Of a DNA stretch of 64,000 nucleotides, positions 2,100 to 63,839 are shown in pieces; positions within the stretch are counted from its first letter, which is position 1, and each line of letters begins with the position of its first letter. Under the pieces are notes generated by a model that saw only the letters and a program-made list of their open reading frames with translations, did no database searches and was not told the DNA's origin. A program made the translations under genes and the position numbers. Location: contig JAFGAR010000070.1 in NCBI GenBank assembly GCA_016933575.1, positions 21,755 to 85,754 of the forward strand. The letters run 5' to 3'. The DNA is from Candidatus Thorarchaeota archaeon. GTDB lineage: Archaea > Asgardarchaeota > Thorarchaeia > Thorarchaeales > Thorarchaeaceae.

Positions 2100-2205
2100 C
2101 AGAAAGAGGGTGGTGGTTAGTACCAGCAGGACAACGGTAGGAGGGGGGGGAGTTATGAGGGCATGTTACAGAAAATGTGTGCCCTGCGAGCCACCTAACC
2201 ACCAT
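2100..2205 (-). ncRNA. putative structured small RNA (copy 1 of C-rich-motif family)
   Basis: 10-bp terminal inverted repeat 2111-2120/2195-2204; internal hairpin AGGGCA/TGCCCT; minus-strand motif AACT-C8-TCCTA (2138-2154); TATA-like CTTATTA (2233-2227) 22 nt upstream; pyrimidine run CCCTCTTTCT at the 3' end. Confidence 0.55.
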
Positions 2206-9950: not shown

Positions 9951-10111
9951 CGTCAATCCCGAGTGGTCGTCATTTACCGGCTTATTATCTCTTCGGAGTA
10001 AACAATTAACTCCAAAGAACACCTTTGCACACACTAAAGTGCCTAATCCATCACTATTTTTATAGTCGTATTATTGCTGTTCCTCATCTTAGAACGAGGT
10101 GGTAACACTAC

Positions 10112-11284
10112 TTGCCCCTAAATAATACTAACATAGTAAGTGCTGCACAAACAAAATTCGGAGCCTTAGAGGGCGTGAGTCTGAGAGAGATGTTCTCAGA
10201 GGCTGTTGATAAGGCTACGGTTGGTTCAGGTATTCCTAAGAAGGACATTCAAGCTGCATTCATTGGAACCTTCATTCCTGAGATGCTTGTCCATCAAGGT
10301 CATTCTGCTCCACTACTGCTTGATTTTGCTGGAATGAAAGGTCTACCAGCAACGAGACACGAAGATGCATGTGCGTCTGGAGCTACAGCTCTTCGGGCGG
10401 CAGTAATGGCAATCGAATCTGGAATGTATAATACAGTTCTTGTGGCTGGTGTTGAAAAGATGACTTCTGTTTCAACAAATAAGGCTACAGAAGCACTAGC
10501 TGCCGCCGCTGATGACCAATTCGAATCAGGTATTGGTCTCACATTTCCTGGCGTCTTTGGCATTGCTGCTGTGGCTCACATGCAAAAATACGGAACGACG
10601 GAAGAGGATATGGCTCTAGTTGCTGTCAAAGCCCACAAGAATGCTTCAACCAATCCATATGCTCAATTCCAGAAAGAGATATCCTTGGAAAAGGCGATGA
10701 CACCCAGATACATTGCATGGCCATTGAAGCTATTTGACTGTTCACCAATATCTGATGGTGCAGCTGCATTAGTGCTAACATCAAATGAGAAGGCAAAGCA
10801 GTATACTGACCTCCCGGTGAAGATTATTGGGTCTGGTCAAGCCTCAGCATCAATGAATCTATGCAATAGAGCAGATCTCACATCCTTCAGTTCTTCGGTA
10901 GATGCAAGTAGACAGGCATACAAGATGGCTGGTCTCCAAGCGAAAGACATGGACTTTGCAGTTGTCCATGACTGCTTCACAATTGCTGAGATTATTGCTA
11001 GTGAGGATATTGGATTCTTCAAGCCTGGTGAAGCTACAAAGGCCGTTCGGGATGGTGTGACTGCCTTAGATGGCGATAGACCAATCAATCCTATGGGTGG
11101 TCTAAAGGCAGTGGGACATCCTGTTGGAGCTACCGGAGTCAAACAGGCTGTGGTTGTGTATCGCGAGCTGATTGGCGATGCTGGACCTAATCAAGTATCA
11201 AATCATGATACAGCAATCGTGCATAATTTCGGGGGAACTGGTGCAACATGTGTTGTCAACATCATGAGGAGGGCTGACGCATGA
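10112..11284 (+). CDS. archaeal-type thiolase (acetyl-CoA C-acyltransferase)
   Basis: EDACASG catalytic Cys, HDCFT, GHPVGATG; SD-like GAGGTG upstream of the TTG start. Confidence 0.95.
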   Translation: MPLNNTNIVSAAQTKFGALEGVSLREMFSEAVDKATVGSGIPKKDIQAAFIGTFIPEMLVHQGHSAPLLLDFAGMKGLPATRHEDACASGATALRAAVMAIESGMYNTVLVAGVEKMTSVSTNKATEALAAAADDQFESGIGLTFPGVFGIAAVAHMQKYGTTEEDMALVAVKAHKNASTNPYAQFQKEISLEKAMTPRYIAWPLKLFDCSPISDGAAALVLTSNEKAKQYTDLPVKIIGSGQASASMNLCNRADLTSFSSSVDASRQAYKMAGLQAKDMDFAVVHDCFTIAEIIASEDIGFFKPGEATKAVRDGVTALDGDRPINPMGGLKAVGHPVGATGVKQAVVVYRELIGDAGPNQVSNHDTAIVHNFGGTGATCVVNIMRRADA

Positions 11285-11670
11285 GTGAAAAACCATCAGT
11301 TGAGGCCTATCTAAATAATATCCAGGATGGTCATTTCAAAGCTTACAAGTGTGTTGACTGTGGTATGGTCATTGCACCTCCCTCAGGTAGCTGCTATGGT
11401 TGTGGAAGTAGCAATATGTCATGGACTGAGGTAAGCGGGAAAGGCAAGTTAATCGCTTTCACGGTCATTCACATTGCTCCAGATGAGTTCGCAGAGGAAG
11501 TACCATACTATGTAGCAATTGTCGAGCTTGCAGAGGGTACTCGGGTGAGTGCTCGGTTGCTTGGTTACGACCCTCTGAAACCTGAAGATGTCAAGATTGG
11601 AATCGATGTCAAGCTAGACTATGAGATGGGCAAATCCGGTAGAAACTATCTGGCATTTAGACCCATTTAA
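11281..11670 (+). CDS. DUF35 Zn-ribbon/OB-fold thiolase partner
   Basis: C..C...PP...C..C, GKGKLIAFTVIH, PYYVAIVEL; overlaps the thiolase stop codon. Confidence 0.92.
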   Translation: MSEKPSVEAYLNNIQDGHFKAYKCVDCGMVIAPPSGSCYGCGSSNMSWTEVSGKGKLIAFTVIHIAPDEFAEEVPYYVAIVELAEGTRVSARLLGYDPLKPEDVKIGIDVKLDYEMGKSGRNYLAFRPI

Positions 11671-11675
11671 TTCCC

Positions 11676-11712
11676 AGAGGGGTTTCTATAAAAGAAACCC
11701 TTCTCCTCCATT
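11676..11712 (+). terminator. hairpin terminator after thiolase-DUF35
   Basis: AGAGGGGTTTCT/AGAAACCCTTCT 12-bp stem with a G-U pair on the coding strand, then a pyrimidine-rich tract. Confidence 0.55.
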
Positions 11713-11764
11713 TCACAATCTCTATAATCCGTTCTCTACTGCCAATGTAGTGAGGTAGTCAGAT

Positions 11765-12754
11765 GTGATTGAGAAGAAATACTCTGAATTACTACGTATA
11801 AAGCCCAAACCTGACAAGATGACATTCTCTGAATGTTCATCAGGGTTGAGAGCTCGTTTTGATCGAGGTCTTCTCGAAAAGCATCTACCTGTAACCTCCG
11901 GTGTTCAAAAAGGAGACCAGAGTCTACTTGAAGTACTCGGGGTAGTGATTCCTGAAAGTACTCGTGAAGCGTTGAAGGCTACAGAGTTTATCGGAGTCTA
12001 TGGTCGAATAGTCACTTCCGAGGATTTTCCAAATCTTCTCTGTTTGCAGTATCTATACGTCTGGGACTATCAAGCAGTTCCAGCTCATGAGGCTGATTAT
12101 GAGCCTATCTTTGTATACGTTGACAAACGAAGAGAATATGCTATCTATGACCTTGCTCATTATTGTTCAAGAAGAATTGACCTCTCTGCTCCAATCAAAG
12201 GAACTCTTGGTCTTCGAATGATTCCGGGTTGGCATTCTTTTCTCCCTGCATATATCACCGATGGCTCTAGGGATAATAATCTGAACATACAACCTCTCTC
12301 TGATCAACATCTTCGCAGCTGGTGGTCAATTCCTGAGGAGGCTCCAAGATTGAAGATAGTCAATCATCTAAGAGACCCCTTTCAGCTACAGGCACCTGGT
12401 CATTTCATGGATGCTCCTGATGAGAATGCAAAGACAATGTGCTGTTCATTTCTTCAAATCGAGAATGCAATGGCTGAGTTTGATGATCCTCGACAAGGTA
12501 TCATTGAAGGTGTTAAACGAGCATTTGCCAATTGCGTTGGTCTTCTGGCTTTCTATAGAATCGGCGCATTTATTCAACTATTAACAGAGATGAGTGATAT
12601 CGGAATGCTCAAAGTTCCACTAACATCAAAGGGAATCGATTTGGTAGCAATAAGTAACCTACTCCGAGATGGTCTTGTTTCGCTGACCAATGCAGGTCGA
12701 CAGTTCTTCGAAGATTTCTATATGAGGCAACCCTCGGAAGATGAACCAGAGTGA
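11765..12754 (+). CDS. hypothetical protein with NPP1/Vps62-like motif
   Basis: QYLYVWDYQ...HEADYEPIFVYV resembles the Y.W/F...H..DWE motif. Confidence 0.45.
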   Translation: MIEKKYSELLRIKPKPDKMTFSECSSGLRARFDRGLLEKHLPVTSGVQKGDQSLLEVLGVVIPESTREALKATEFIGVYGRIVTSEDFPNLLCLQYLYVWDYQAVPAHEADYEPIFVYVDKRREYAIYDLAHYCSRRIDLSAPIKGTLGLRMIPGWHSFLPAYITDGSRDNNLNIQPLSDQHLRSWWSIPEEAPRLKIVNHLRDPFQLQAPGHFMDAPDENAKTMCCSFLQIENAMAEFDDPRQGIIEGVKRAFANCVGLLAFYRIGAFIQLLTEMSDIGMLKVPLTSKGIDLVAISNLLRDGLVSLTNAGRQFFEDFYMRQPSEDEPE

Positions 12755-13501
12755 TTACTCTGTTGCTTGTATATCCGCTTTTCTAATTTTCTTGCCTACC
12801 TGTGCCCAGTCTAAGCGGACAGCAAGATATACGGTCACAATGAGTAACACAATACCCAGGACTTCCACTGTTGCTGAGATTGGAGTGACAGGTCCTCCGA
12901 CTCCTAATAGCTCAATGAACCAGTCCAAGCTAAGACGTCCAGCCCACGAAACAGCTGAGAGAAAGATAATCTCACCAATAAGACATGGCCAAAATAACTT
13001 CCACCATGAATATCTGGCTACACCCAAAGCAACCACTGCAGGGTCTAGAGGAAGTGGTGTGGATGCTAGAAGAAAGATTGCAGCTGGTGTGGCTCTAGGA
13101 TAGGTTTCAATGAATCTACTGAATCCCTTAGTATTAGCATCATCAACTAGACGTCTTCCCGCATAACCCAGAGCATAGCTTGTCATATCGCCAATCGTTG
13201 CTCCAATACCTGACAAGATCCCCACTACCCAGGGATCGAATATGAAAGGACCAACAATTCCATCGCGCAAACCTCCAAGTACAAATGGAACGCCAGCAAA
13301 CGGAATCTCGACAACAACACTTGCACTTCCCAGCAGACACACGAGGAATGTTCCTGGGTAGCCCAAAACAACTGCAAAATCAGCGACCCATTGAAAGAAA
13401 TTAGCTAGTGGACTAACAGCAGAAGGATACACCAAGAGGACTATCCAATACATGAAAGCAATTATCATAGAAGACGCAAATACTTGATCTGCACGTCTCA
13501 T
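12755..13501 (-). CDS. DedA/VTT-domain membrane protein
   Basis: GIGATIGDMTSYALGYAGR and LASTPLPLDP motifs. Confidence 0.85.
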   Translation of the reverse strand: MRRADQVFASSMIIAFMYWIVLLVYPSAVSPLANFFQWVADFAVVLGYPGTFLVCLLGSASVVVEIPFAGVPFVLGGLRDGIVGPFIFDPWVVGILSGIGATIGDMTSYALGYAGRRLVDDANTKGFSRFIETYPRATPAAIFLLASTPLPLDPAVVALGVARYSWWKLFWPCLIGEIIFLSAVSWAGRLSLDWFIELLGVGGPVTPISATVEVLGIVLLIVTVYLAVRLDWAQVGKKIRKADIQATE

Positions 13502-55658: not shown

Positions 55659-55765
55659 GGGCCGGTAGATTAGCCCGGCAGATCGCATGGTTTGCAAACC
55701 TTCTGGGTCTCCCAGGAGATCAAACCTCCATGAGGCCGCGAGTTCAAATCTCGCCCGGTCCACCA
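55659..55765 (+). tRNA. tRNA-Ala(UGC) with 30-nt canonical intron (55697-55726), CCA encoded
   Basis: acceptor GGGCCGG/CCGGTCC with G3:U70, discriminator A, anticodon stem CATGG/CCATG, TTCAAAT T-loop, bulge-helix-bulge (CAA / TTTG:CAAA / CCT) at position 37/38. Confidence 0.95.
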
Positions 55766-61370: not shown

Positions 61371-61502
61371 GGCAACTACCTAATGGATTGGTACGAGAGA
61401 TCTTCCAACAAGAAATATTATCGTTTCTTTTTAATATGCTAATATGGATTCATTGCAATTATCTTTTTAAAATGATAATAATCGGAATTATTGATTACCT
61501 TG

Positions 61503-62312
61503 ATGCGCAAGAAATTGTCTCTGATATTACTAGCTGGTTCCATTTTTGCCCTGATGGTCGCAACTCCTCAAGTGACACCAGTCAGTGCGTTGCAGATGGA
61601 GTATTTCCCGCTAGCTCCTGGTAACTATAACATCTTCAATTCAACCAACGATCAAGGAACATGGATGACTAAGCGATATGTTGGTAATGAATGGGAGTTC
61701 CTTGGCGGTCCGTATGGTGTCTTCACAGTCTATTGGTGCGAGGCTCATATGATGCCTGGCGAGACCAACTATACATGGAAGAACCAGATGTGGCTCTCAA
61801 AGACTTCAGACACTCTTGTCTGGTGGGGTTTTGAAGATGAGAATGCAAAGATAACTGCCAGCAGTGGATTGAATTATGTTACAGAACCAGTGACCGCTGG
61901 TGCAATACATAGTGGTTCAACAACTGGCACACTCATTCTCAAGGCAAGTGAAACTTCAATGCCTGGAGTGCCATTCTCCGCTAATTACACAATTGAGGCA
62001 ATTGAGAGTGTAACAGTTCCTGCAGGTACATTTGATGATTGTATCAGAATCCACGAAGAAGAGATTACACCAGATGGTGCAGTAAGTTTCTGGGTCTGGT
62101 ATGCACCAAATATCGGTGCTGTTCAATACCATTATCCTGATCAAGAAGACCGTTGGGACAGACTTGTTGATTATGGTGTTGACCTTGAAAACGATCCATG
62201 GGATAGTTGGTTCATGCCAAGTGTACCTTCAATCATGATGATTGCCACAGTCGTTGGTGCACTTCTCATTGCAGTCATTGCTATTGTGGTAGTAATCCAT
62301 AAAAGACGGTAA
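61503..62312 (+). CDS. secreted, C-terminally anchored beta-rich protein
   Basis: signal peptide MRKKLSL..., YFPLAPG, ESVTVPAGTF, WYAPNIG.V, C-terminal TM + KRR. Confidence 0.75.
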   Translation: MRKKLSLILLAGSIFALMVATPQVTPVSALQMEYFPLAPGNYNIFNSTNDQGTWMTKRYVGNEWEFLGGPYGVFTVYWCEAHMMPGETNYTWKNQMWLSKTSDTLVWWGFEDENAKITASSGLNYVTEPVTAGAIHSGSTTGTLILKASETSMPGVPFSANYTIEAIESVTVPAGTFDDCIRIHEEEITPDGAVSFWVWYAPNIGAVQYHYPDQEDRWDRLVDYGVDLENDPWDSWFMPSVPSIMMIATVVGALLIAVIAIVVVIHKRR

Positions 62313-62319
62313 TAATTCA

Positions 62320-62352
62320 GGGGGGCGCTCACCTCCCACCCTCTCTTTTTCC
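62320..62352 (+). terminator. hairpin plus pyrimidine tract
   Basis: GGGGGG/CCTCCC stem then ACCCTCTCTTTTTCC. Confidence 0.5.
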
Positions 62353-62399
62353 TCAGTCCTAATTTTTTCTAGCCTCTCACATTGTCTATTTTTCAGAAA

Positions 62400-62517
62400 A
62401 TTAAAAGGAATATGGGCCTGGCAAAGAGAAAAATTTAGGGAAAGTAGGTTCCTACTGATGTAGGAAGTATTCGCGTGGTTAGGAGGGGAGTTTGAAGCTC
62501 TCTCAACCAGACCCTAC
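62400..62517 (-). ncRNA. putative structured small RNA (copy 2 of C-rich-motif family)
   Basis: closing stem GGGUCUGG/CCAGGCCC (U-G pair only on the minus strand); AACUCCCCUCCUAACCACGCGA; hairpin TTCCTAC/GTAGGAA; TATA-like CTTAATA 62545-62539; T-rich end. Confidence 0.6.
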
Positions 62518-62643
62518 GAGTATGTTATTTCGATTGCATATTAAGTATTTAGTTAGGTACATTTGGAAAAATTAAGCCTCAAAATCACGCCAATACGAGC
62601 CATCTAGGACAATTAATAAAAAAGGAATTGAATTGTGTGTATG

Positions 62644-62781
62644 AAAAAATGTTAGGATTCGATTCGAAATCAGAATATGCTGCTTTTGGCAACATATCTT
62701 AATCGCGTGGTTCCCCCGGAGAAGCTGAATGCTGCTCTGTTTAGGAGGGGAGATTAAAGAAGTCAATGAATCGAATCCTAT
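62644..62781 (-). ncRNA. putative structured small RNA (copy 3 of C-rich-motif family)
   Basis: perfect 13-bp inverted repeat 62653-62665/62768-62780; CUCCCCUCCUAA and AACCACGCGA motifs; hairpin with minus-strand U-G pair; TATA TTTATTAA 62808-62801; T6 end. Confidence 0.65.
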
Positions 62782-62898
62782 CGATTCTCAAATTTGTTGT
62801 TTAATAAATCTATTTTTATGGTATAAATTAGAAACATTATAGATTGAAGCCATAGCAAAACTAGTGTCCACTAATTATGGGGAAATGCACAGTTTGTA

Positions 62899-63258
62899 CT
62901 AATACCCCCATTCCTGCCCTAATCTCTGTCTGTACCAGCGTTGGCCTTTCTTTGTCAGGGACCATTGACCTTGAATTTCATTGAGATAACCAATCTCCAT
63001 CATATCATCTAAAACACCGAAGAGTCTGTCTTCTGATGCTCCAGTAGCCTTTTGGAGCGCAGCAAAGTTCATTTTTCCATTTCTCTTCAGATGTTGTGCG
63101 ATCTCGAACTTGCCAACAGCTTTAGTTTCAGTACGGGTTACTATGTGTCCGCAGTTTGTGCAAAGAAGATCACCTTTGAGATCATCTCGTGCGACTTCCT
63201 TACCTCCACAGATTGGGCAGGTTGCCTGTGAAAATCTGAGTGAACGTCTGTGGGACAT
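62899..63258 (-). CDS. TFIIB-type zinc ribbon + winged-helix protein
   Basis: CPICG...D..KGDLLCTNCGHIV; wHTH ending WSLTKKG. Confidence 0.75.
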   Translation of the reverse strand: MSHRRSLRFSQATCPICGGKEVARDDLKGDLLCTNCGHIVTRTETKAVGKFEIAQHLKRNGKMNFAALQKATGASEDRLFGVLDDMMEIGYLNEIQGQWSLTKKGQRWYRQRLGQEWGY

Positions 63259-63332: not shown

Positions 63333-63839
63333 CTAGCTCTCTACTAGTTCTTTAAAGAATGATTCATAGTCTATCTCAAAGGGTACCCTATTACCAAGGC
63401 GGACTTGTTTTTTATCCTGATGGATTTCCACATATCCTGAACCCTGCAATTCTCTGAGGTCATCCATGACACCTCTCAGTGCTTTCTTCCTAAACTCGCG
63501 AACTCGGTTTATGCTGACCCAGCCGCCTTCCTGATACGCCAATGTGATAACAATCAGGAGCGTTGCAGCAAGCCTATCCGGCAATGATGTACCATCCTGT
63601 TGAAGCTTGACATCATCAGAAGTGTCTAAATAGAAAACACCCGCAACTGGATTGTGTCTAACAAAGAGACCAATCTCACTTACTTTTTCGTGTAGGCTCG
63701 CTAACCGCTTGAATAGTATATGTCTACCAGTATCTTCAGGAAGTCCAAGCGCATCAAGCATGTCATCTACACTTGCTCCAATGGGTGTACCAGTTCTGGT
63801 CAAGAGTTTGATGAGGATGGCGTACTCGTTCATTATCAA
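63333..63839 (-). CDS. tandem winged-helix KITE-like protein (ScpB/Nse1/Nse3-MAGE-like)
   Basis: two wHTH; L..IGLFV.....FYL, ATLLIVITL, L...GYVE...VRLGNRVPFEID. Confidence 0.6.
   Translation of the reverse strand: MIMNEYAILIKLLTRTGTPIGASVDDMLDALGLPEDTGRHILFKRLASLHEKVSEIGLFVRHNPVAGVFYLDTSDDVKLQQDGTSLPDRLAATLLIVITLAYQEGGWVSINRVREFRKKALRGVMDDLRELQGSGYVEIHQDKKQVRLGNRVPFEIDYESFFKELVES

Follow-up and report, generated by a model that had tools for sequence, protein, structure and literature searches.

The window analysed here is a 64,000-nt stretch from a Candidatus Thorarchaeota archaeon (GenBank assembly GCA_016933575.1, contig JAFGAR010000070.1, positions 21,755 to 85,754 of the forward strand), and one of its intergenic gaps very probably holds two real non-coding RNA (ncRNA) genes of a new family. 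A membrane-protein gene (61491-62312, plus strand) and a gene at 62899-63258 (minus strand) flank this gap (62313-62898), which on the minus strand holds two small-RNA units, A and B. Each appears to be an independently promoted gene for a small ncRNA of ~100-135 nt. A sequence-only reading of the window had proposed two unannotated minus-strand genes of a multi-copy family, each unit having a TATA box, a terminal stem, shared identical motifs and a T-rich tail, and every one of these elements is found in the sequence.

Unit B (62402-62517; all coordinates of the two units are on the minus strand) is of the subtype that we call F1, in which a terminal stem encloses an unpaired core, an optional hairpin and a second C-rich tract. 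Its TATA box CTTAATAT (62545-62538), read from the sequence, stands ~24 nt before the stem, and 30 bp upstream of the box are conserved too. The stem, found by folding, pairs GGGUCUGG with CCAGGCCC (62514-62507 with 62421-62414, one U-G pair included) and extends inward as GAGAGA/UCUCUU. Inside it lies the contiguous core CUCCCCUCCUAACCACGCGA (62490-62471), which occupies invariant alignment columns, contains CCUCCUA and has a mean predicted probability of being unpaired of 0.85. The core is followed by a 7-bp hairpin (62466-62449), a second pyrimidine tract CCUACUUUCCCU (62448-62437) that is kept in the alignment and across genera, and the T-rich tail UUCCUUUUAAUUUUCU (62410-62395), at whose equivalent place the orthologs have pyrimidine-rich tails. 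The stem of the hairpin varies in sequence among orthologs with its pairing kept, and the hairpin as a whole is lineage-specific, missing in locus L013 and in most other genera. Transcription of unit B would run towards the convergent membrane-protein gene.

Unit A (62643-62781), supported by its fold and by a covariance-model match, is a tandem paralog. Its TATA box TTTATTAA (62808-62801) and its perfect 13-bp terminal stem (62780-62768 with 62665-62653) can be read directly from the sequence, with ~20 nt between them. Within the stem are the 12-mer CUCCCCUCCUAA (62752-62741) and the 10-mer AACCACGCGA (62712-62703), followed by a long hairpin and then a T6 tract (62649-62644) that is likely an archaeal terminator. 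The 12-mer shared by the two units has exactly two exact occurrences and, with one mismatch allowed, three matches where 0.15 are expected; the 10-mer is exact only at the same two sites, and chance cannot account for either shared word. Compared with shuffled sequences, unit A folds with a z-score of -5.3 and unit B with one of -3.6, and a further element at 2104-2196 (see below) reaches -2.6.

The expectation that Rfam would not contain these RNAs is borne out: an Rfam 15 search of 62300-62900 gave nothing at the gathering threshold, nothing better than E ~1 with the limit set to E≤10, and scores far below gathering throughout. ARAGORN finds no tRNA in the two-unit region, and ten loci with other family members likewise have no Rfam match.

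The family is widespread among close relatives of the host. All genomes compared, including the 85%-complete host genome (G000), are metagenome-assembled genomes (MAGs), and related genomes are non-independent samples. The family core is CCCUCCUA(A)CCACG, and the search pattern CCCTCCTA(N)CCACG occurs in 82 of the 85 genomes of the same GTDB family, with every one of the 16 genera represented. The remainder of the phylum yields nine scattered matches in 8 of 314 genomes, which is chance level, and reversed-pattern controls are near zero. A related pattern, CCCCTCCTA-N(0-30)-CCACG, is present in all 24 sampled genomes of the same genus at one to eight copies each, with an almost empty reversed control. 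Judged by these patterns, and for the genomes searched, the family is restricted to a single GTDB family of Thorarchaeota. A viral origin was considered and rejected, as the 15 exact matches found in viral contigs all lack the family context.

Across the family, the invariant platform core is (A/U)CUCCCC(n)UCCUAACCACGCGA. Subtype F1 has a terminal stem of ~8+4 bp, then (A/U)CUCCCC(n)UCCUAACCACGCGAA as its core, a hairpin in some members and finally CCUAC..UUUC. In subtype F2, a 14-bp stem ending in GCCACC encloses GGGCUAGUUUUUCGUUACAUGCCCUCAAUUACGAAACUCCCCCCUCCUACCACGAUU, and a genome has 1-20 copies. We built a covariance model, R1, from ten F1 sequences of one genus, and with strict filters it finds mostly one F1 copy per genome (55 of 86 genomes, 14 of 16 genera). 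Unit B scores 106 bits against R1 (E 4e-28, a rough value, as are all E-values from these briefly calibrated models) and is the only strong match in the whole genome; it is the conserved, usually single-copy ortholog. Unit A scores 20.2 bits (E 0.005 on the set of collected loci) and has orthologs in the same genus (L008, L027, L020, L021 and L068). A-type units follow the same upstream protein gene, p119, in several genomes of that genus, and in one g22 locus (L062) the main R1 match is preceded upstream by a second, weaker one. The tandem arrangement is therefore not confined to this genome.

Covariation supports the closing stem. In the 39-sequence R1 alignment, all 12 modelled pairs of the F1 closing stem show compensatory changes. 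Stem cells are paired in 91% of cases vs 73% in shuffles, none of 500 shuffles reaches the observed score, and controls in which the stem is slid along the alignment are 28-65% paired. Fitting the alignment to the model biases it towards the structure, yet the slid controls, together with how many pair types occur, are still convincing. Because G-U pairs are frequent, the strand can be fixed as minus. For F2, 9 of 14 pairs covary, and the inner UUUCGU/ACGAAA helix is invariant and so, because it never varies, uninformative on covariation. An alternative pairing of the F2 5' arm with CCACG was considered and rejected, as the arm covaries with its 3' partner instead. The proposal that pairing is kept while stem sequences change, around an invariant unpaired C-rich core, thus agrees with the computed covariation.

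The element at 2104-2196 (minus strand) had been put forward as a third relative at 2100-2205. It does belong to the family, but as a divergent F2 and not as a sibling of units A and B: the F2 model R2 gives it 20.5 bits (a rough genome-wide E of 0.45), and in its fold a long stem that ends in CCACCACC encloses two retained sequences, GUAACAUGCCCUCA and the run CUCCCCCCCCUCCUACC. Its closest look-alike is a copy on contig C156 of the same genome. The other F2 copies of this genome are a canonical one on C148, one truncated at the start of C78 and the larger variant on C156. Several contigs start or end inside F2 copies (e.g., G000 C78 with bases 1-54, the starts of G002:C13 and G003:C7, and G015:C224), a number of them at the same F2 offset. 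The F2 core, 50-60 nt long and near-identical between copies, is probably a point at which short-read assemblies of Thorarchaeota break. One lineage has expanded the family: G352 (loci L032-L037) has ~20 core copies, some of them variants with a CUGAUGA- or CCGAUGA-like box, a possible kink-turn, in the 3' part.

The sequence-only reading was right that the same motifs occur in both units, but it overlooked that in unit A they are parted by a 30-nt insert that orthologs lack. The insert, ACAGAGCAGCAUUCAGCUUCUCCGGGGGAA (62740-62711), splits the core between CCUCCUAA and CCACGCGA, and the two leading A's of AACCACGCGA may be counted as its end. Four unit A orthologs (L008, L027, L020 and L021) have instead a contiguous core, ...CUCCCUCCUA(A)CCACGCGAU..., and excising the insert joins AUCUCCCCUCCUAA|CCACGCGAUUAA, i.e., the family core. 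Its layout of 1+9+5+9+4+2 nt resembles a bulge-helix-bulge (BHB). The exon bases UCCU pair with GGGG near the 3' end of the insert as a central helix (4/4 paired, two of them G-U), each putative splice point sits in a 3-nt bulge (AA|A and AA|C; the two are on opposite strands), and the intervening 23 nt fold into an inner stem with 7/9 paired and a 5-nt loop. A fit as good as this has a chance rate of 4e-4 per position.

Unit A is one of four family copies with 30-nt inserts of identical layout, which occupy three different sites in the core. The other three inserts sit at two further core sites, and removing each restores the consensus. They are in the C156 copy of this genome (helix 4/4, stem 9/9, chance rate 6.5e-6), a canonical F2 of G344 (helix 3/4, stem 8/9) and an A-type unit of G365 (helix 4/4, stem 8/9), and their locus labels are C156, L049 and L068, with inner stems of 9, 8 and 8 of 9. 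The C156 copy (~199270-199440, plus strand; locus L125 1810-1980) is an F2-like RNA gene of greater size that has a TATA box of its own. Its near-perfect BHB insert AGUGAUGUGGAAUGCCCAUAUCGCGGGGAA, between CCUCC and UACCAC, is the clearest intron example in the family.

Archaeal BHB introns, which are found in tRNA, rRNA and the cbf5 pre-mRNA, have a 4-bp central helix and two 3-nt bulges on opposite strands (PMC2738675). The unit A insert is like them in its central helix, opposite bulges, inner hairpin and restored conserved sequence. It is unlike them in that its host is a small regulatory-type RNA gene, that it has no outer helix and two inner-stem mismatches, and that its splicing is a prediction. 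If it is an intron, the tRNA splicing endonuclease presumably removes it and so restores the core. The host genome encodes two splicing-endonuclease paralogs, i.e., two separate genes with a tRNA-intron endonuclease catalytic domain (C57:215033-215281 and C16:35566-35823), which suggests a heteromeric enzyme. In other archaea, a two-paralog composition is linked to relaxed BHB recognition.

Several results weigh against splicing. The unit A insert lacks an outer helix, its inner stem is imperfect (7/9), a canonical BHB scanner with a strict inner helix misses it, and a loose fixed-layout scan for 30-nt inserts finds 418 matches genome-wide vs 431 in reversed sequence. As the scan shows no enrichment, structure by itself is no evidence, and the intron reading therefore depends on the location, the length and the restoration of the core. 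We consider the chances that the insert is actually spliced to be about even.

Upstream of the F1 RNA lies a conserved module of two protein genes, which had also escaped notice. The gene next to unit A, p119 (62899-63258, minus strand), encodes a TFIIB-type zinc ribbon (PF08271 in Pfam) and a winged helix, and p168 (63333-63839, minus strand) is syntenic with p119 and the F1 RNA. The p168-p119 pair precedes the F1 RNA in the same orientation at 27 of 34 F1 loci and in seven of the eight genera sampled. The RNA is 150-650 nt downstream of the pair, or ~1.2 kb in one arrangement because a DUF362 gene is inserted. All 104 p119 homologs are Asgard-labelled and nearly all are from Thorarchaeota (61-84% identity). 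For p168, there is no Pfam or PDB match, and what a protein atlas offers (MAGE, DUF4194) is weak and has no bearing on the RNA. The gene pair has a range much like that of the RNA, and p119 could be a regulator of the RNA genes.

What the RNAs do is a separate question, and the core offers the main lead. In this GTDB family, the 3' end of 16S rRNA is ...GGAUCACCUCCU, mostly followed by A (29 loci). The core carries CCUCCUA, which extends this 3' end by one base and is complementary to UAGGAGG. Upstream of candidate start codons, TAGGAGG is the most enriched extended form of the Shine-Dalgarno (SD) sequence, with 33 observed vs ~2 expected. The sequence-only reading had pointed to the 16S tail and to SD motifs, and both the identity of CCUCCU(A) with the tail and the enrichment of UAGGAGG hold. 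The core is also what one would look for in an anti-SD small RNA (sRNA), i.e., an unpaired tract complementary to the SD consensus of its own organism, and each RNA has two C-rich tracts, like the anti-SD sRNAs already described.

On the reading that we favour, a stable terminal stem would hold open a largely unpaired, almost G-free platform that displays the invariant core. The exposed CCUCCUA could then pair in trans with purine-rich ribosome-binding sites of the UAGGAGG(G) type, and this pairing would block translation initiation, the mode of action proposed for bacterial sRNAs with an anti-SD loop (cuckoo/CcsR, RsaE) and for sRNA41 of Methanosarcina. Our analysis makes such a trans-acting, site-masking RNA a reasonable candidate, to which we give somewhat less than an even chance.

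The lineage-specific inserts of the RNAs often contain SD-like purine runs (GGAGAU, AGGGAGG, GGGGGA) that are complementary to the core. In several F1 loci of other genera (L048, L053-L056, L059 and L060), hairpins inserted directly before the core pair such a run (GGAGAU, AGGGAGG or AAGGGGG) with a local duplicate of the first bases of the core. The same run may pair with the core itself instead, which would make a possible built-in switch.

A number of observations speak against masking. The 85%-complete genome has no complement of the core of at least 11 nt, and seeded duplex scans for mRNA targets score no better than shuffled cores. Some 22 candidate starts have an extended match to the core, with no visible shared theme. 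More than 20 nt of the platform are invariant whereas SD pairing needs 5-9 nt, and ACCACGCGA is left unexplained by it. The length of the C-run in the core varies from 4 to 8. Finally, UAGGAGG is so common that the pairing would be of uncertain specificity.

Other partners for the core were looked for with no better result. Its complementarity to 16S rRNA, 23S rRNA, RNase P RNA, signal recognition particle (SRP) RNA and 5S rRNA is at control level only. A search for an antisense partner (17-mers with up to three mismatches and exact 10-11-mers) matched only family copies on the opposite strand. We rejected mimicry of the pre-16S 3' cleavage site beyond CCUCCUA, as the trailer after CCUCCU is not conserved across the 29 loci. 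Likewise rejected were an antisense of the tRNA D-arm (the complement GUGGUUAGGA is D-loop-like, yet in no tRNA of the genome) and a triple helix of the core with a purine-rich stem (the purine run is not conserved). On the plus strand, AGGAGG could have served as the SD sequence of conserved small open reading frames (ORFs), but no plausible or conserved ORF lies behind it. An oddity of the 16S 3' end itself is that contig C9 of G362 has three copies of its 20-mer, one with a mismatch, within 3.5 kb (10077-13501), which is odd for a single rRNA operon.

The strongest competitor of masking is a protein-binding role, in which the platform binds a C-rich-strand or 16S-tail protein, either titrating it as a decoy or forming a ribonucleoprotein with it as a scaffold. 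Candidates are a KH-domain factor of the Dim2/Pno1 kind, as KH proteins may recognise CCUCC, and the Thor-specific neighbours p119 and p168. The failure to find an RNA partner for more than 20 invariant unpaired nt, in the genome or in any of the stable RNAs listed above, fits this idea, as do the two or three C-patches per RNA and the varying C-run length, which a protein could accommodate more easily than a fixed duplex could. The RNA is also syntenic with p119 across seven genera, and the Asgard-labelled range of p119 homologs is like its own. However, the make-up of p119 (TFIIB ribbon plus winged helix) points to a regulator that binds DNA, p168 is without any recognisable domain, the locus has no linked RNA-binding domain, and synteny alone is no proof of binding. 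Given the missing partner RNA, the unexplained ACCACGCGA and the >20-nt conservation, a protein-binding or decoy role is almost as likely as masking, though we would still call it possible rather than probable.

A third scheme builds on the inserts and makes splicing the gate of a riboregulator. The 30-nt BHB mini-introns would have repeatedly colonised the core, in four copies and at three sites within it. Near its 3' end, each intron has a G-run that would pair with the core as the central helix, thereby masking the anti-SD tract of the unspliced RNA, and the cut by the tRNA splicing endonuclease would both remove the insert and unmask the tract. The predicted probability that the unit A core is unpaired is 0.83 in the spliced form, and it is 0.52 for the C-rich half in the unspliced form, where the G-run of the insert masks it. 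We regard this scheme as doubtful.

Could the units be cis elements, belonging either to p119 as its 3' untranslated region or terminator, or to a downstream gene as its leader or riboswitch? The F1 RNA is always downstream of p119 in the same orientation, and about two thirds of F2 copies have a co-oriented gene within 80-430 nt downstream. Against this, each stem has a conserved TATA box at a fixed distance before it, e.g., a (C/T)TTAATATA box 20-30 nt before the stem in F1 orthologs of seven genera. The gene beyond unit B is convergent with it, as it is for several other copies, and the genes downstream of family members have no common theme (FeS protein, Ham1, NifU, flotillin, NYN, H+-PPase, PhzF). 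The canonical F2 is found between a radical-SAM gene and the PhzF gene in several genera, and the additional copies adjoin unrelated genes in either orientation, which disfavours a cis-regulatory role. We therefore think it quite unlikely that the units act in cis. The H+-pyrophosphatase gene adjoins family members in two arrangements (L024, L025 and L030; L045 and L048): in one genus it is co-oriented, 100-144 nt downstream of an F2 variant, and in two genera it is convergent with F1.

Remnants of a mobile element without a function of their own, resembling miniature inverted-repeat transposable elements (MITEs) or short interspersed nuclear elements (SINEs), could account for the 1-20 F2 copies per genome, the copies at contig ends and the frequent inserts and duplications. 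Yet F1 is usually single-copy at one syntenic site in seven genera, the arms differ between copies while compensatory changes keep their pairing, the units have no visible target-site duplications or shared terminal repeats, and viral contigs contain no copy with family context. A MITE origin, which the sequence-only reading had named as a possible refutation, left no signature at this locus, and an origin of this type is very improbable. Equally improbable is a function of another kind, whether as the template of a polymerase or reverse transcriptase, as a ribozyme or as an RNA that binds RNA polymerase. The C-rich CCUAACC-type tract is superficially like template regions, p119 has a TFIIB-type ribbon, and conserved junction nucleotides with variable stems are typical of ribozymes. 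However, no reverse transcriptase or nuclease is encoded by the flanking genes that were examined with Pfam, the internal repeats typical of templates are missing from the core, no ribozyme family matches, and the platform is almost without G for a catalytic fold.

Known RNA classes provide useful comparisons. RsaE/RoxS and other C-rich-motif sRNAs of Firmicutes have conserved unpaired C-rich tracts, usually two, that are thought to pair with SD regions, and for RsaE, targets are known. The Thor RNAs share the two unpaired C-rich tracts but differ in architecture and domain of life and have no sequence or structure match to these sRNAs in Rfam.

The cuckoo RNAs of Alphaproteobacteria (RSs0680/CcsR1-4, SmelC397/alpha-r14) consist of 2-4 adjacent hairpins with CCUCCUCCC in each loop (PMC4615179). 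Like them, the Thor family is multi-copy, often occurs as tandem siblings by a small upstream gene, and combines variable stems with an unpaired anti-SD-like C-rich motif. Unlike the Thor RNAs, cuckoo RNAs are bacterial, Hfq-bound and co-transcribed with the upstream gene (PMC4615179), whereas a Thor unit is a terminal stem closing a 20-45-nt platform, with a longer and different core, its own TATA box and, in some copies, a BHB-type insert. Membership in the cuckoo/alpha-r14/CcsR group was rejected: there is no series of CCUCCUCCC hairpins, and the core CUCCCCUCCUAACCACGCGA lies in a multi-loop closed by the terminal stem. The closest archaeal parallel in mechanism is sRNA41 of Methanosarcina mazei, which is intergenic and for which translational repression has been proposed through the masking of ribosome-binding sites; its targets (the ACDS operon) are experimentally supported (PMC5867862). 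It is unrelated in sequence and lineage to the Thor RNAs, whose mechanism is inferred.

The sequence-only reading had likened the units to Y and vault RNAs. The layout is indeed alike (~100 nt, a 5'/3' terminal stem, a pyrimidine-rich internal loop and a U-rich 3' end), but the likeness stops there: no conserved Ro-binding helix is evident, Rfam gives no Y_RNA match, and the 85%-complete genome has no TROVE/Ro60 match, so neither class applies. An H/ACA guide was rejected because unit A alone has ACA after the stem (AUA, AUC, GUC or CUA stands there elsewhere in the family) and the upper hairpin is dispensable (L013). More generally, H/ACA or C/D guides should have conserved boxes, of which there are none, and complementarity to 16S and 23S rRNA is no better than in shuffles. 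The units are not 5S rRNA, RNase P RNA or SRP RNA, all three of which are found elsewhere in G000 and G339, and they do not look like a MITE, given their covarying arms, unduplicated flanks and the single syntenic site of F1 in seven genera. The family is therefore outside every catalogued family tested, and its layout and motif logic resemble those of sRNAs with an anti-SD loop. Elsewhere in the window, the sole Rfam match is an intron-containing tRNA gene of 104 nt (55659-55762, plus strand; 51.9 bits), which ARAGORN missed.

A brief literature search found no Asgard-specific regulatory RNA. Here, an exact copy of the anti-SD tail is combined with strong promoter-like TATA boxes in RNAs that are conserved across a whole family of Thorarchaeota. 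The covariance models R1 and R2 can be used to annotate these RNAs, and the window adds to them an F1 locus with conserved protein neighbours and, besides C156, a second insert-bearing copy from this one genome. Splicing of the 30-nt inserts, if it occurs, would extend archaeal BHB introns to small non-coding RNA genes. If the splicing-gated scheme is true, the activity of a 16S-tail-mimicking RNA would be coupled to the tRNA splicing machinery, and small regulatory RNAs would join the very short list of archaeal intron-bearing genes other than those for tRNA and rRNA. And if the RNA controls translation initiation or ribosome-related factors, it would offer a first way into post-transcriptional control in the archaea most closely related to eukaryotes.

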